Origin: a virus
Taxonomy: Duplodnaviria > Heunggongvirae > Uroviricota > Caudoviricetes
IMG/VR virus record: IMGVR_UViG_2695420809_000014
Location: 1-12,227 of that record
Strand: one strand, 5' to 3'
Length of the DNA: 12,227 bases
The position numbers and the translations under genes were made by a program. Below, one piece after another: positions 7,067 to 12,227 of the stretch. Position 1 is the first letter of the stretch. The number at the start of each line of letters is the position of its first letter. The notes under the pieces were generated by a model. It ran no database searches. It worked only from the letters and a program-made list of their open reading frames with translations, and was not told the origin of the DNA.

Positions 7067-7277
7067 AAACGGTTTGCGGGGAAATCTTAGTTAAGTAGAA
7101 TGACTGCGGGTGCTTGAGGCTATCTGTCTCAGGCATGAACACCAAAAGGCAGATAGAGAAAAGCCCCAGTTAACATTACGCGTCCTGCACGACGCTTAAC
7201 ATTAATCTGAGGCCCAATCTATGTCTCACAAATGTAGGTTAGCCTCTTACGTGCCGAAAGGCAAGGAGAAGCAGGCT

Positions 7278-7433
7278 ATGAAGCAGCAAAAGGCGATGTT
7301 AATCGCCCTGATCGTCATCTGTTTAACCGTCATAGTGACGGCACTGGTAACGAGGAAAGACCTCTGCGAGGTACGAATCCGAACCGGCCAGACGGAGGTC
7401 GCTGTCTTCACAGCTTACGAACCTGAGGAGTAA
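7278..7433 (+). CDS. hokD: Hok/Gef-family type I toxin (51 aa)
   Basis: Translation MKQQKAMLIALIVICLTVIVTALVTRKDLCEVRIRTGQTEVAVFTAYEPEE matches my recollection of E. coli HokD/RelF; AAGGAG upstream; an in-frame ATG at 7221 would give a 70-aa extended form. Paralogue assignment is uncertain because no relBE is upstream. Confidence 0.85.
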   Translation: MKQQKAMLIALIVICLTVIVTALVTRKDLCEVRIRTGQTEVAVFTAYEPEE

Positions 7434-7880: not shown

Positions 7881-8930
7881 GTGCGGGTATTACTTCGACC
7901 TGTTCTGGTACCGGAACTCGGGCTGGTGATCGTTAAGCCGGGCCGTGAATCCATGCCGGTATTCCACAATACCCGGGTACTGGTGGAGCCGGAACCGAAA
8001 AGCATGCGTAATCTGCCGTCCGGGGTTGTTCCTGCCGTTCACCAGCCGCTAGTGGAAGACAAAACATTGCTGCCGTTTTTCAGTAACGCACGGGTGATTC
8101 GTGCTGCTGGTGGTGCTGGTGCATTGTCTGACTGGCTGTTGCGCCATATTAAATCCTGCCAGTGGCCACACGGCGATTATCATCACAGCGAAACCGTCAT
8201 TCACCGTTATGGTACCGGCGCAATGGTGTTGTGCTGGCACTGCGACAACCAGCTGCGTGACCAGACATCCGAATCACTCGAGCAACTTGCTCATCAAAAC
8301 CTGTCAGCATGGATGATTGACGTCATCGGTCACGCAATAAGCGGTACGCAGGAGCGTGAATTATCTCTGGCTGAATTATCCTGGTGGGCGGTCTGCAATC
8401 AGGTGGCGGACGCGCTTCCGGAGGCAGTATTACGTCGTTCTCTGGGGTTACGTGCGGAAAAAATCCGCCCCTTGTACCGCGAAAGCGACATCGTACCGGG
8501 AGAGCAGACCGCCATCAGCATACTGAAACAGCGCACAAAAAATCTTGCGCCGCTGCCTCACGCCCACCAGCAACAGAACCCACCACAGGAAAAGACGGTG
8601 GTCAGCATTGCCGTTGATCCTGAGCCTCCGGAATCTTTCATGAAACGACCTAAACGTCGCCGCTGGGTTAACGAGAAATACACACGCTGGGTGAAGACAC
8701 AGCCGTGTGCGTGTTGTGGTAAGCCAGCCGACGATCCCCATCACCTGATTGGTCATGGTCAGGGCGGAATGGGGACAAAATCTCACGATATTTTCACGCT
8801 ACCGCTGTGTCGGGAGCATCACAACGAGCTTCATGCGGATCCGCTGGCGTTCGAAGAAAAGCATGGTTCTCAGGTTGATTTAATTTTTCGTTTTCTTGAT
8901 CACGCCTTTGCAACTGGCGTGCTTGGGTAA
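7881..8930 (+). CDS. DUF968-like protein (YdfU-like, 349 aa), C-terminal Cys/His HNH-like motif
   Basis: GTG 7881 with GGAGG upstream; C-terminal CACCG...HHLIGHG...CREHHNELH cluster. Confidence 0.75.
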   Translation: MRVLLRPVLVPELGLVIVKPGRESMPVFHNTRVLVEPEPKSMRNLPSGVVPAVHQPLVEDKTLLPFFSNARVIRAAGGAGALSDWLLRHIKSCQWPHGDYHHSETVIHRYGTGAMVLCWHCDNQLRDQTSESLEQLAHQNLSAWMIDVIGHAISGTQERELSLAELSWWAVCNQVADALPEAVLRRSLGLRAEKIRPLYRESDIVPGEQTAISILKQRTKNLAPLPHAHQQQNPPQEKTVVSIAVDPEPPESFMKRPKRRRWVNEKYTRWVKTQPCACCGKPADDPHHLIGHGQGGMGTKSHDIFTLPLCREHHNELHADPLAFEEKHGSQVDLIFRFLDHAFATGVLG

Positions 8931-8942
8931 AAGAGGTGACTG

Positions 8943-9299
8943 ATGCTCATAGATTTGGTTTTACCTTACCCGCCGACGGTGAACACTTACTGGCGACGCC
9001 GTGGCAGCACATATTTTATCTCGGAGGAGGGAAAGCGTTATCGCCGGGCTGTGGCGTTTATTGTTCGCCAGCAGCGGCTGAAATTAAGCCTGTCCGGAAG
9101 GCTGGCGATAAAGGTGATTGCAGAGCCACCGGATAAGCGTCGTCGCGACCTGGACAACATTCTGAAAGCACCGCTGGATGCGCTGACGCATGCGGGAGTG
9201 TTAATGGACGATGAGCAGTTTGATGAAATCAATATCGTTCGTGGTCAGCCAGTATCTGGTGGACGTCTGGGGGTGAAGATTTACCCCATAATGCATTAA
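8943..9299 (+). CDS. rusA: RusA-family Holliday junction resolvase
   Basis: Conserved PDKRRRDLDN, DALTHAG and GGRL segments; size 118 aa; GAGGTG before ATG 8943. Confidence 0.85.
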   Translation: MLIDLVLPYPPTVNTYWRRRGSTYFISEEGKRYRRAVAFIVRQQRLKLSLSGRLAIKVIAEPPDKRRRDLDNILKAPLDALTHAGVLMDDEQFDEINIVRGQPVSGGRLGVKIYPIMH

Positions 9300-9313: not shown

Positions 9314-10135
9314 ATGAAACTGGAAGATTTACCGAAATACTACTCCCCAAAATCCCCTGGCCTGACCGATGCATCGGCCTCAACGTCAAAAGATGCGCTG
9401 AGTATCACTGATGTGATGGCCGCGCAGGGCATGACACAGAATCGGGCTGAGATGGGTTTTTCTGCGTTCCTGGGGAAAATGGGCATCAGTATGAATGACA
9501 GGGCGCGGGCAACAGAATTACTGGCAGATTATGCACTCAGTCGGTGCGATCGTGTGGCGGCGTTGAGAAAACTTCCGGCAGAAATAAAACCGGTAGTGAT
9601 GCGCATTATGGCTTCGTACGCTTTTGAGGATTATGCCCGCAGCGCAGCGAGTAAAAAGCAGTGCCCTTGTTGCTATGGGGAAAAATTTATTGAAAGCATA
9701 GTTTTTACAAACAAGGTCCAGTATCCGGATGGTAAGCCGCCGGTATGGGCAAAGTGTACGAAAGGTGTGTATCCGTCTTACTGGGAAGAATGGAAAAAAG
9801 TCAGGGAGGTGGTAAAAGTTGCCTGTCCGGAGTGTGGCGGAAAGGGTGAGGTTTCCACCGCCTGTAAGGATTGCCGTGGGCGTGGTGTCGCCATTCATCG
9901 TGAAGAGTCGGTAAAACGTGGTATGCCTGTTATCAGAGACTGCCAGCGTTGTGGTGGTCGTGGCTATGAAAGACTACCATCAACGGAGGCATTTAATGCT
10001 ATATGCGAGGTGACAAACCAGATAACACGCGCGTCATGGGAAAAAACAGTTAAGAAATTTTATGATGCGCTGGTGACCCGGTTTGATATTGAAGAAGCAT
10101 GGGCTGAGCGGCAGTTAAAAAAGGTAACTAGGTAA
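9314..10135 (+). CDS. late-gene antiterminator Q-like protein with four CxxCxGxG zinc-finger repeats
   Basis: Sits immediately upstream of a pR'-like promoter and tR'-like terminator; CPCCYGEKF, CPECGGKGE, CKDCRGRGV, CQRCGGRGY motifs; resembles Qin-type Q homologues from memory. Confidence 0.6.
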   Translation: MKLEDLPKYYSPKSPGLTDASASTSKDALSITDVMAAQGMTQNRAEMGFSAFLGKMGISMNDRARATELLADYALSRCDRVAALRKLPAEIKPVVMRIMASYAFEDYARSAASKKQCPCCYGEKFIESIVFTNKVQYPDGKPPVWAKCTKGVYPSYWEEWKKVREVVKVACPECGGKGEVSTACKDCRGRGVAIHREESVKRGMPVIRDCQRCGGRGYERLPSTEAFNAICEVTNQITRASWEKTVKKFYDALVTRFDIEEAWAERQLKKVTR

Positions 10136-10140
10136 CAAGG

Positions 10141-10168
10141 TTGATTTTTCCGGAATCTGTGGTAAATT
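10141..10168 (+). promoter_or_regulatory. pR'-like late promoter
   Basis: TTGATT (10141-10146), 16-bp spacer, TG-extended TAAATT (10163-10168), 5 nt after the Q-like stop. Confidence 0.5.
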
Positions 10169-10215
10169 CGTCATAACGATGGGCGTTTTATGCCTGACGT
10201 TAGAAGAGTTTCTAC

Positions 10216-10241
10216 AACCCGCCGCTGAGCGGGTTTTTTAT
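10216..10241 (+). terminator. tR'-like intrinsic terminator
   Basis: AACCCGC-CGCTGA-GCGGGTT stem-loop followed by TTTTTT, about 50 nt downstream of the promoter. Confidence 0.65.
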
Positions 10242-10278
10242 TGCGAAATTAATTACGGACCGTTATTATTCTGCTCCC

Positions 10279-10354
10279 GGCCCTTTAGCTCAGTGGTGAG
10301 AGCGAGCGACTCATAATCGCCAGGTCGCTGGTTCAAATCCAGCAAGGGCCACCA
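10279..10354 (+). tRNA. tRNA with CAT anticodon, closest to the lysidine-type tRNA-Ile2 (ileZ/ileX-like); tRNA-Met not excluded
   Basis: 7-bp acceptor stem GGCCCTT/AAGGGCC, D-arm GCTCAGTGGTGAGAGC, anticodon loop CTCATAA, T-arm GGTTCAAATCC, encoded CCA. Confidence 0.8.
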
Positions 10355-10455
10355 TCACAAACCGCCATTAGCTTATCAGGAAGAGCAGACGACACGATAA
10401 CAGGGTTGTTGGTGCGGGGGGCGGGTCCCCGATGGCGGTCCATTATCGGTATTCA

Positions 10456-10532
10456 GCGTTGTTAGCTCAGCCGGACAGAGCAATTGCCTTCTAAGCAATC
10501 GGTCACTGGTTCGAATCCAGTACAGCGCGCCA
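10456..10532 (+). tRNA. tRNA-Arg (TCT anticodon, argU/argN-like)
   Basis: Acceptor stem GCGTTGT/ACAGCGC, anticodon loop CTTCTAA, T-arm GGTTCGAATCC, encoded CCA; close to E. coli argU by eye. Confidence 0.85.
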
Positions 10533-10642
10533 TATTCATTCTTCCAGATTCCTTCCGGCAGAGCCTTATACTGAAATATACCTGGCTCAGGATATTGTTG
10601 AAAATATTATATGTTTGTCAAAAATAAAAGTTCTGTTAAGTA

Positions 10643-10996
10643 TTGATTGAATATTTGTTATACGGTCTAATGGTTTTTTCAGCATTAAATATTTATCATT
10701 CATATGGTGTGGGTAGAGTGAATATTGATGAGGCGTCGGGGTGTTTCATCCTTAGGCAGCGTATTGATATAGTCAATGCAGCACGAGCAAAGGCCTTCAG
10801 CCGTTTGACAGTTTTGTTCTGTACTCCTGATCGTCTTTCGGGAAGAGACGTTATTATTCTGAATAGTGATGCTATACAGAGGGTTTGCGATGAGTTCATG
10901 GTTGCTAATTCAGAATTATTTGCTCTTGTTCAGGAGTACAACAGAATAGCCAGGACCTGTGGTATGGATGAACTTCGGATTACTCATCTGGGGTAG
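10643..10996 (+). CDS. hypothetical protein in the AT-rich cargo segment (117 aa from TTG 10643; 108 aa from ATG 10670), hydrophobic N-terminus
   Basis: Longest ORF in the cargo; frequent ATA, AGA and AGG codons; no convincing SD at either start, so the call is tentative. Confidence 0.4.
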   Translation: MIEYLLYGLMVFSALNIYHSYGVGRVNIDEASGCFILRQRIDIVNAARAKAFSRLTVLFCTPDRLSGRDVIILNSDAIQRVCDEFMVANSELFALVQEYNRIARTCGMDELRITHLG

Positions 10997-11076
10997 ATAC
11001 ATATCTGGATTATCACCTGTTACGGTAAAAAGTGATTGCTTACTGTTTTTGTGAATGGCATTGCAGCAGCCGGATA

Positions 11077-11163
11077 ATGTCAGTGCTGGCTGACGGTGTG
11101 CTGGTGGCGGGTGTGGTGGTTGTTGCTTTCCCGTTGCTGAAAAAGAAAACGCCAGACTGTTAG
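11077..11163 (+). CDS. possible small hydrophobic peptide, 28 aa
   Basis: MSVLADGVLVAGVVVVAFPLLKKKTPDC: hydrophobic core then a KKK tail; weak SD (GGAT); not in the ORF track. Confidence 0.2.
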   Translation: MSVLADGVLVAGVVVVAFPLLKKKTPDC

Positions 11164-11389
11164 CCGGGTATCAGTTAGCGGGAGAAATTTTTAAATACTT
11201 CACAATTCAGGCGGTTGACTGTTGTCTGGTTTGCGGGGAGTTTGTTAAAAGAAACTGGCATGGTGAATCCCCCTGTGCGGAGGGGCAATCAGCGAGTAGG
11301 TATATGGGATAATCGCGGATTCAGGTGCTGGTACTGAATTCACCGGGAGGCACCCGGCACCATGCAATGGCACATAGCGCCACTCTCCA

Positions 11390-11416
11390 GCCCCTCTCCG
11401 GAGGGGCTGTTTATAT
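11390..11416 (+). terminator. candidate intrinsic terminator
   Basis: GCCCCTC-TCCG-GAGGGGC stem-loop followed by a T-rich tract (TGTTTATATTGATTTT). Confidence 0.4.
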
Positions 11417-11443
11417 TGATTTTGTCAGATGTGAGTAAACTCC

Positions 11444-11779
11444 TTATGGATTTTGTTGTTTTAGCCCATAAGGACATATTTGCAGAGTGCAACGGTTATT
11501 AAAGCATTCATTCAATACGTTATCTGTATTTGTAGGGCATTCCTGGCTGTTTTTGATTAAATTCCAGAATGTTTTATTGAATGGTACTATGTTGTAAATG
11601 GTTACAGGTAGCACTTTGTTATTGAGCATGATACCTGTGTGAGTCAGTGTAAATATACTTTCAGGAGGTAAGAAAGCATCCGATTGATACCAGATTATTA
11701 ATTTTATTTTACTCCATATGACTGAAAAAGATATTCCGCATGATGGCTGGATAACTGTATCAATCACAATCCACTTCAT
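11444..11779 (-). CDS. hypothetical protein, 111 aa, in the AT-rich cargo
   Basis: ATG 11779 with AAGGAAA 5 nt upstream; transcribed opposite to the late operon; Trp-rich N-terminal half and Cys-containing C-terminal half; no family recognised. Confidence 0.6.
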
Positions 11780-12038
11780 TTACTTTCCTTGTTTATGCCT
11801 TGCTGGTGATGTTCTGAAAAGTATAAATGATATTTTTGAATTAAACCATAGAGCAGAATTATTTTTCTGATGTTGTTTATTGTTTATTTAAATACAGGGT
11901 GGTTTATATCTCGTCTTGTAGTTTATCCATGCATATCTGCTTGATAATCAGGTTTTTATTTAAGGTATGGTTTTGTGTTTTTTCTGTATTACATGTCAGG
12001 TATTTTAAAGAATTATTTTTCAGATGGTGGAAAGAACC

Positions 12039-12227
12039 ATGGCATTTAAACACTATGATGTTGTCAGGGCGGCGTCGCCATCAGATCTTGCGGAAAAGCT
12101 GACACATAAACTGAAAGAGGGCTGGCAGCCGTTTGGTAGTCCGGTGGCCATAACCCCTTATACTCTGATGCAGGCGATTACAGCAGAAGGTGATGTGGTG
12201 GTCAGTGGTGCAACTGAGCCGGATTGG
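12039..12227 (+). CDS. 5' part of a conserved small phage protein (DUF1737-like by recollection), continues past the window end
   Basis: ATG 12039 preceded by GGTGGA; open frame MAFKHYDVVRAASPSDLAEKLTHKLKEGWQPFGSPVAI... to 12227 with no stop; GC content returns to backbone level. Confidence 0.5.
   Translation, partial: MAFKHYDVVRAASPSDLAEKLTHKLKEGWQPFGSPVAITPYTLMQAITAEGDVVVSGATEPDW

Follow-up and report, generated by a model that had tools for sequence, protein, structure and literature searches.

In the window analysed here, a stretch of 12,227 nt that forms part of a Qin-like lambdoid prophage of E. coli, positions 10997-11443 quite probably hold two unrelated things: a complete gene for a small RNA of the STnc100 family, and a pseudogene-like remnant of a DUF3927/TciB-like gene. 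A preliminary description had singled out this segment as rich in hairpins and free of long open reading frames (ORFs). Indeed, there is no ORF of 60 aa or more within 10997-11443, and the longest ORF overlapping the segment (50 aa) is on the minus strand. The finding is real, correctly located and already known, being a member of a described family together with a gene remnant, and our analysis did not reveal a new kind of element. For 10997-11443, the result is an annotation fix: the full STnc100 copy is absent from RefSeq, whose records over this stretch consist of a “DUF3927 family protein” and a minus-strand pseudo-ORF, without an RNA gene. STnc100 is among the most abundant annotated small RNA families of enterobacteria, and its members are found directly behind Shiga toxin genes.

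The segment lies in the cargo (“moron”) slot of the prophage, which is located between the Q antiterminator and tRNA genes on one side and the esterase and lysis genes on the other. This slot lies downstream of the late promoter, at the place where Stx phages carry stx. The 701 bases around 10997-11443 are 100% identical to several E. coli chromosomes, and similar sequence was found in 2859 of the 5426 complete genomes, at a median of two and a maximum of 12 places per genome. The gene order of the window is as follows:

Upstream of 7108: replication and nin-type genes (DnaC-like ATPase, DUF1627, DUF4406)
7108-7433: hok/sok, a genuine pair in the same prophage
7881-8930: DUF968
8943-9299: RusA
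9314-10135: Q antiterminator, 273 aa (Pfam Antiterm, 184 bits)
10279-10354: tRNA-Ile (CAT)
10456-10532: tRNA-Arg (TCT)
10643-10996: unannotated ORF of 117 aa (phrog_2873)
11012-11163, plus strand: decayed DUF3927 (TciB-like) gene (Pfam PF13064, phrog_1470, alignments with intact loci)
11444-11779, minus strand: convergent IraM-like anti-adapter gene, 111 aa (RefSeq; phrog_4407, 241 bits)

The end of the IraM-like gene is located 20 nt past the U-tract of the STnc100 RNA, and in a matching genome the genes for a SASA esterase, a holin and a lysozyme come next. The combination of the small RNA with an IraM-like gene is also present after stx2c in phage 1717.

Family membership and folded core of the RNA

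For this segment, the preliminary description had named a small RNA, a type I toxin-like peptide and a repeated element as options of equal standing. The first of these options was the right one. A scan of all Rfam families resulted in a full-length match to STnc100 (RF02076), a canonical member of which is present here, with a score of 132.4 bits versus a gathering score of 47 and an E-value of 1.3e-29. The match was unchanged in E-value mode, and no other Rfam family matched in the region, even when E values up to 1 were accepted. This covariance search, which had been proposed as a check in the preliminary description, places both hairpins in one gene. The significance of the region rests on homology, that is, on the Rfam match to STnc100 and on the Pfam match to DUF3927 described below. 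The features of the small RNA gene are the following:

11189-11204, plus strand: CRP-like site, TTTTAAATACTTCACA, with 8 of 10 matches to TGTGA-N6-TCACA and its centre at -61.5 from the predicted start
11222-11250, plus strand: putative sigma-70-like promoter of STnc100 (hexamer conservation, 5' end of PasD2)
11229-11418, plus strand: Rfam STnc100 (RF02076) match, model positions 1-206 of 206
11258-11365, plus strand: structured core, a four-helix junction
11258-11265 with 11358-11365: helix P1; a GC/AU swap (16:10) at one pair, none broken, and seven double changes at the next pair
11268-11273 with 11279-11285: helix P2, the first hairpin of the preliminary description; sequence-invariant
11317-11324 with 11334-11341: helix P3; changes on both sides at 7 of the 8 pairs
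11343-11347 with 11353-11357: helix P4, CCGGG-AGGCA-CCCGG, with AGGCA as loop; sequence-invariant
11366-11387, plus strand: variable linker, AATGGCACATAGCGCCACTCTC, 22 nt from core to terminator; candidate seed region
11388-11424, plus strand: Rho-independent terminator, the second hairpin of the preliminary description; 9-bp stem CAGCCCCTC/GAGGGGCTG, loop TCCG, then TTTATATTGATTTTG

The hallmark helices of STnc100 are all present at 11258-11365, namely the closing helix P1, CCCCC..GGGG, CCGGG-AGGCA-CCCGG and a variable hairpin. The position of the RNA in a cargo slot downstream of a Q antiterminator is also that of a family member. We compared the core with relatives from Stx1, Stx2a and Stx2c phages, phage 640R1 and mEp460, from E. 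coli prophages with intact DUF3927 genes, and from species-representative genomes that were scanned for the 20-nt core block CCGGGAGGCACCCGGCACCA, which yielded at least 120 stretches. The core-block matches listed include Escherichia, Shigella, Enterobacter, Klebsiella, Raoultella, Kosakonia, Citrobacter, Superficieibacter, Trabulsiella, Buttiauxella, Pantoea, Erwinia and others, and Rfam confirmed STnc100 in all 18 core-block loci tested.

Helices P1 and P3 are supported by covariation. In 27 sequences from about ten genera, 92% of the cells pair, versus 43-49% when the partners are slid by one to three columns; no shuffle reaches the observed covariation score. P2 (UCCCCCU..GCGG.GGGG), P4 and the junction bases are invariant over about ten genera; drift is seen in P3, in the flanks, and in the linker and terminator. 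Because P2 and P4 are invariant in sequence, they give no covariation evidence; what supports them is this invariance, together with the thermodynamic fold of the core (MFE fold of -43.1 kcal/mol, z -2.0).

The first hairpin, CCCCT-GTGCGG-AGGGG, is present at 11270-11285 as described. The T11274-A11281 pair drawn for it did not hold, as position 11281 varies freely (A, C or T), and a bulged stem of 6 bp (11268-11273 with 11279-11280 and 11282-11285) is a better fit to the comparative data. Taken alone, this hairpin folds with -8.8 kcal/mol (z -0.9), which is no better than shuffled sequence; its significance lies in its conservation and not in its folding energy.

The second hairpin, GCCCCTC-TCCG-GAGGGGC, is likewise present, at 11390-11407, and extends to the 9-bp stem at 11388-11409 that precedes the U-tract. 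Its folding energy of -20.3 kcal/mol (z -5.4) was equalled by none of 200 shuffles, and the terminator was also called by a terminator scan. Other family members have a terminator at the equivalent place, with a sequence that differs by lineage. A bidirectional terminator that would also serve iraM was considered and is not supported: the minus strand folds with -19 kcal/mol, but there it is not followed by a U-tract. The Stx2a and Stx1 phage copies that were examined have exactly the same linker and terminator as this one. Among the 59 family copies having a strict terminator, the linker measures 20-39 nt in 47. A recombination joint is present in the stretch exactly at the 3' end of P1.

The idea of a repeated element stood in part. 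STnc100-type sequence is present at a median of 2 and at most 12 places in each E. coli genome that carries it, and tandem arrays of it are seen in other loci, but the two hairpins are not copies of a repeat: the first is invariant throughout the family, and the second differs in sequence in other genera. Because the terminator sequence differs by lineage and the first hairpin is invariant, the likeness between the two CCCCT...AGGGG hairpins is confined to Escherichia/Shigella-type copies.

The small ORF and the toxin-antitoxin interpretation

The small ORF reported at 11077-11163 does encode a hydrophobic peptide of 28 aa with a KKK tail (MSVLADGVLVAGVVVVAFPLLKKKTPDC). The RefSeq CDS has 43 aa and begins at the GTG at 11032 (11032-11163), and the 28-aa ATG form uses an inner start in the same frame. 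In its 43-aa reading, the ORF matches PF13064 with 95.6 bits versus a gathering score of 25, and PHROG 1470 carries the label “TciB-like”. Relatives in the databases come as forms of 28, 43 and 52-57 aa. According to a protein alignment with the 52-57-aa members, the long forms have two hydrophobic helices, of which this copy keeps only the second; its C-terminal 29 residues (LAD motif, second helix and KKK tail) are 93-100% identical to those of DUF3927 members. A literature search on TciA/TciB and DUF3927 gave one incidental mention and otherwise unrelated Trypanosoma papers.

DNA alignment with intact loci shows how the 5' part was lost. The ancestral start codon GTG has become GTT (11021-11023) and the ribosome-binding site GGAG has become GGAT. 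Through three deletions (11, 4 and 14 nt), the first helix has been removed or frameshifted, and in its place MIAYCFCEWHC is encoded. The DUF3927 gene of 54-57 aa overlaps a 143-aa TerB-domain gene by 4 nt in all nine loci that were read, and STnc100 is located about 65 nt after the DUF3927 gene in all six of these nine TerB-DUF3927 loci that were scanned. Homology to the TerB-DUF3927 module starts at about 11012, just after the stop codon at 10996 of an unrelated ORF; whereas the intact 54-57-aa DUF3927 genes that were read have a TerB partner, here the unrelated ORF at 10643-10996 (phrog_2873) takes the place of that partner. Because the start codon, the ribosome-binding site and the first helix are lost, the ORF is, judged from its sequence, what is left of a DUF3927/TciB-like membrane-protein gene, in a decayed and pseudogene-like state. 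More than 1000 contigs carry the 28-aa and 43-aa ORFs in intact form, and these may still be translated to a residual degree; their many single-residue variants, which include an L-to-P change in the helix, form a pattern that would fit hitch-hiking with the prophage.

It is highly improbable that the segment encodes a type I toxin-antitoxin system, with the hydrophobic peptide as membrane toxin and the hairpin-rich RNA as its antitoxin. The hydrophobicity of the peptide and its KKK tail would be in line with such a pair, STnc100 or PasD is often found 40-65 nt after a DUF3927 gene in E. coli prophages, and the same prophage carries the genuine hok/sok pair at 7108-7433. The RNA, however, is encoded on the same strand as the ORF and would start about 95 nt after the ORF stop codon, so that there is no antisense overlap; nor does it show excess complementarity to the ORF mRNA (duplex z -0.6, equalled by 9 of 40 shuffles, in a crude unrestricted duplex method). 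The two are not inherited together either. DUF3927-like sequence is present in only about 6 of 125 loci (120 of them among the listed exact matches to the 20-nt core), several times with stops or frameshifts; among the matches listed, nearly all loci of other genera have the RNA but lack the ORF, and in Stx phages the RNA follows directly after stx2B, stx2cB or stx1B, with no peptide. In phage 640R1 (L004) and in E. albertii L063 and L110 the ORF is disrupted, and the region and the small RNA persist, which is the outcome that the preliminary description had itself named as speaking against the peptide. Moreover, intact genes encode a two-helix protein of 52-57 aa and, where copies of 54-57 aa were examined, overlap the TerB gene; this 5'-decayed copy has lost the start, the ribosome-binding site and the first helix. 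Strand and position, complementarity, co-inheritance and ORF decay thus largely refute the type I toxin-antitoxin interpretation. Genuine hok/sok likewise combines a small hydrophobic ORF with a structured small RNA in a prophage, but it is distinguished by antisense overlap, complementarity and co-inheritance, none of which applies here. The simplest reading of the linkage between DUF3927 and STnc100 is that the small RNA unit supplies a terminator at the end of the cargo slot.

Proposed promoter, independence and function

The small RNA gene would have its own promoter at 11222-11250, with a -35 hexamer TTGTCT (11222-11227), a 17-nt spacer and a -10 hexamer that is either TTAAAA (11245-11250) or TAAAAG (11246-11251). 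Upstream of P1, conservation among genera is limited to promoter-like hexamers. Five diverged E. coli copies agree at most bases of TTGnCT and TTAAAA and differ in the 17-nt spacer. An A/T-rich -10 signal is located 9-15 nt upstream of GGTG in a set of 71 non-redundant family members, many of which have a textbook TTGACN-17-NATAAT in that register. A consensus scanner made no promoter call at 11222-11250, where the -10 hexamer is without the usual final T. The 5' end of PasD2 as estimated by RNA-seq (NC_011601, position 741157; PMC8550237, table S6) coincides in the alignment with G11258 exactly, the base with which P1 begins, and on homology alone the STnc100 RNA is predicted to start near this position.

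Upstream of the putative promoter, the CRP-like site at 11189-11204 is a candidate regulatory site, which we consider as a lead only. The motif is present at -60.5 to -62.5 in four E. coli/Stx-phage representatives and at -57.5 in an Stx1 phage, and it is absent from the copies in other genera that were compared. Homology with the Stx-phage copies starts at 11191-11200, upstream of the -35 hexamer, and the homologous block contains the CRP-like site. In Salmonella, ChIP-exo has revealed RpoD and RpoN binding patterns for STnc100 copies (PMC10794520); when this stretch was checked by eye, a sigma-54 element (GG-N10-GC) in register was not found.

The EDL933 copy STnc100_10, which shares “tatgggata” with the present one, has high ribosome coverage, and this prompted a check for a hidden ORF inside the small RNA. 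Only unconvincing frames of 37-46 aa that run through the terminator were found, and a hidden ORF was rejected.

The RNA might also not be an independent gene at all, in which case it would be the structured 3' UTR and terminator of the cargo transcript and any short species would be processing products without a function of their own. We regard this as unlikely. It would agree with the position of STnc100, which always comes immediately behind a cargo CDS, for example stxB or DUF3927, and with the weak -10 hexamer of this copy that the scanner missed. EcOnc27 also overlaps the Rfam annotation only in part (PMC12711010), and PasA, an unrelated small RNA of 84 nt encoded in these prophage regions, has been proposed to arise by cleavage of a longer transcript (bioRxiv 10.64898/2026.05.13.724894). 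Against it speak the promoter-like hexamers at a fixed distance in many genera, textbook sites included, and the exact coincidence of the PasD 5' end with the first base of P1. Furthermore, tandem arrays repeat the whole STnc100 unit with its upstream region, and the core is conserved far beyond what a terminator needs.

STnc100 would accordingly be expected here as an independently transcribed RNA of about 160-167 nt, running from 11258 to the terminator, in which a conserved and structured 5' domain is followed by a variable single-stranded linker beside an Hfq-type terminator. The most likely role, in our analysis, is that of a trans-acting, Hfq-associated RNA that acts by base pairing, with the target specificity located in the variable linker; the basis for Hfq binding and for targets is provided by relatives (the core of PasD, the context of EcOnc27) that differ from this copy. 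A seed in the linker would be consistent with the predicted PasD seed UGUGAG, which is located at the equivalent place (PMC8550237, fig. S5). The terminator, in turn, would end the cargo and small RNA transcripts in the lysogen before the lysis genes, and Q-modified polymerase would read through it. By the same crude unrestricted duplex method as above, pairing with the 5' ends of iraM (z +1.1) and of the esterase gene (z +0.8) was unconvincing, as was pairing with the start of the 117-aa ORF (z -1.9, 1 of 40 shuffles as good).

For a small RNA that acts purely by base pairing, it is unusual that P2 and P4 do not vary at all from Erwinia to Escherichia. This strict invariance is not explained by the base-pairing model, which leaves room for an additional binding partner; it hints at a further interaction. 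Taken further, the core could serve as a platform to bind a partner, whether a protein or not (for example ProQ, some factor of the phage or the host, or a ligand), with pairing by the linker secondary or absent. That reading, which we hold to be quite unlikely, draws on the contrast between the invariant P2, P4 and junction bases and the drifting remainder of the RNA, and on EcOnc27, for which no direct target has been validated (PMC7873438). The STnc100 core has no known partner, however, relatives have been recovered on Hfq and in RIL-seq chimeras via their 3' parts (PMC4104026, PMC8550237), and PasD retains signals associated with function despite its diverged P4 block. A combined scheme can be offered tentatively, although we would not bet on it: STnc100 may be modular, with the invariant core as a platform for a candidate partner and with prophages swapping the linker and terminator, and in the E. 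coli/Stx subgroup it may be under a CRP class I switch (-61.5). For experiments, the family offers handles in its predicted own promoter, invariant core, variable linker and swappable terminators.

Comparison with PasD and with the STnc100 copies of Stx phages

Several relatives of this RNA have been described. EcOnc27 (sRNA103), which is located just after stx2B in EHEC, overlaps the STnc100 annotation (PMC12711010, PMC7873438) and was demonstrated by Hfq-CRAC and Northern probing (PMC4104026, PMC7873438). Strain EDL933 has 11 STnc100 copies, all of which were detected by RNA-seq and one on a Northern blot (PMC5331693). STEC vesicles were found to contain STnc100, which is located there 75 nt downstream of stx2 (PMC12370729), and variants in an Stx-adjacent STnc100 copy have been statistically linked to clinical outcome (PMC12711010). 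For PasD1 and PasD2 of EPEC, Northern blots revealed a stability that depends on Hfq, and RIL-seq yielded targets (PMC8550237); Zhu, Shabalina and Storz related PasD to STnc100 (bioRxiv 10.64898/2026.05.13.724894).

PasD1 and PasD2 of EPEC E2348/69 occupy the same slot as the RNA described here, with a DUF3927 gene 41 nt upstream and esterase or holin genes after them, and PasD shares with this STnc100 the helices P1 and P2 as well as promoter-like hexamers of the same type and spacing. PasD differs in that it scores only 41 and 38 bits versus the STnc100 threshold of 47, and in having a diverged block of P4 and the 3' strand of P1, another linker and another terminator. The 3' half of the PasD type, with the seed UGUGAG just upstream of the terminator GGCTGCGC..GCGCAGCC, is not present in this copy; in the stretch analysed, TGTGAG occurs only at 11430-11435, past the terminator. 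The possibility that the RNA is PasD itself was rejected on the canonical STnc100 block ACCGGGAGGCACCCGGCACCA that is found here and on the different linker and terminator.

The closest parallel is formed by the copies of Stx phages, in which STnc100 follows stx2B or stx1B at a distance of 46-75 nt and precedes the esterase gene. A search of 10100-12227 for the anti-sRNAs AsxR and AgvB (51-60 nt, opposite strand) gave no RF02702 or RF02703 match with E up to 1. Compared with EcOnc27-type copies, a convergent IraM-like gene follows the RNA here, with no AsxR/AgvB-type small RNA detectable, and the middle of the core (P2 to P3) is shorter in this copy than in the Stx-phage copies. The preceding cargo also differs, being stx in the EcOnc27-type copies and the DUF3927 remnant plus an unknown ORF in this prophage. 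What this RNA has in common with the STnc100/EcOnc27 RNAs of Stx2 phages is the four-helix core and the slot, with a cargo CDS on its upstream side and the esterase and lysis genes on its downstream side.

The 3' end of helix P1 in STnc100

Comparison of window 10997-11366 with the corresponding region of phage mEp460_ev081 (positions 2501-2870 of the collected locus L137) revealed 99.7% identity, and the two sequences diverge beyond 11366. The recombination joint between them coincides exactly with the 3' end of helix P1 in the core of the STnc100 small RNA, and position 11366 is also the end point of many Stx-phage matches. Because the matches to mEp460_ev081 and to many Stx phages break off at this position, the linker and terminator of STnc100 appear, judging from these alignments, to have been swapped as one unit.

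The upstream CRP-like site and tandem copies of STnc100

The following feature is located upstream of the sRNA:
11189-11204, CRP-like site with 8 of the 10 consensus bases, its midpoint at -61.5 relative to the inferred sRNA start

The CRP-like site of Stx2a and Stx2c phages contains 9 of the 10 consensus bases (TGTAATCTGTGTCACA). No such site was found upstream of STnc100 copies from other genera.

STnc100 is also present in tandem arrays of 2-4 units each, spaced by ~220-470 nt, in Superficieibacter, Enterobacter, E. albertii and phage 640R1. The units vary in helix P3 and in their flanks, and most come with promoter-like hexamers and a terminator of their own. In the Enterobacter loci, isrI is located near the arrays.

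STnc100 tandem arrays in the collected loci
L035, 6323-7018
L046, 2787-3238
L072, 1903-2346
L063, 4825-5482
L004, 2665-3322
Arrays also in L055 and L024

Apparent coding signals across the sRNA

RefSeq contains an incomplete "hypothetical protein" pseudogene at window 11248-11373 (-), antisense to the sRNA core, and a comparable antisense ORF is annotated across PasD1, a diverged STnc100 relative in E2348/69. These ORFs look like artefacts of ORF calling across an unannotated RNA gene. For the EDL933 copy STnc100_10, a "Shine-Dalgarno" and high ribosome coverage have been noted (PMC5331693). The motif of this signal, TATGGGATA, is present at window 11303-11311, and no credible ORF was found after it in the window.

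Genes upstream of the sRNA

7108-7433, hok/sok locus of the type I toxin-antitoxin class (120 bits to Rfam sok; hokD in the annotation of relatives)
10136-10242, leader-like short stretch directly 3' of the Q gene, with a strong intrinsic terminator at its end
within 10241-10532, tRNA-Ile (anticodon CAT) and tRNA-Arg (TCT), as a pair preceded by a promoter-like TTGCGA-17-TATTAT
10643-10996 (+), 117-aa ORF, 38% GC, phrog_2873 match

An IS421 element is located just 3' of hokD in NZ_CP027355, the matching genome; the coordinate offset of ~1.35 kb relative to this genome indicates that the element is missing from the window. The 117-aa ORF is located where the TerB-DUF3927 module has its TerB-domain gene. 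It matches the whole phrog_2873 profile (unknown function) with 234 bits, and is not annotated on the identical RefSeq chromosome, where the locus tags show a gap.

ARAGORN called the CAT-anticodon tRNA as Met, which we read as tRNA-Ile; the tRNA-Ile/tRNA-Arg couple is the rare-codon pair typical upstream of stx in Stx phages. The stretch following Q, which gives a weak Trp-leader-like match (26.5 bits) and is closed by the terminator AACCCGC-CGCTGA-GCGGGTT plus a T-run (10216-10235), is probably the PR'/tR' unit and would thus be the counterpart of lambda 6S RNA or StxS.
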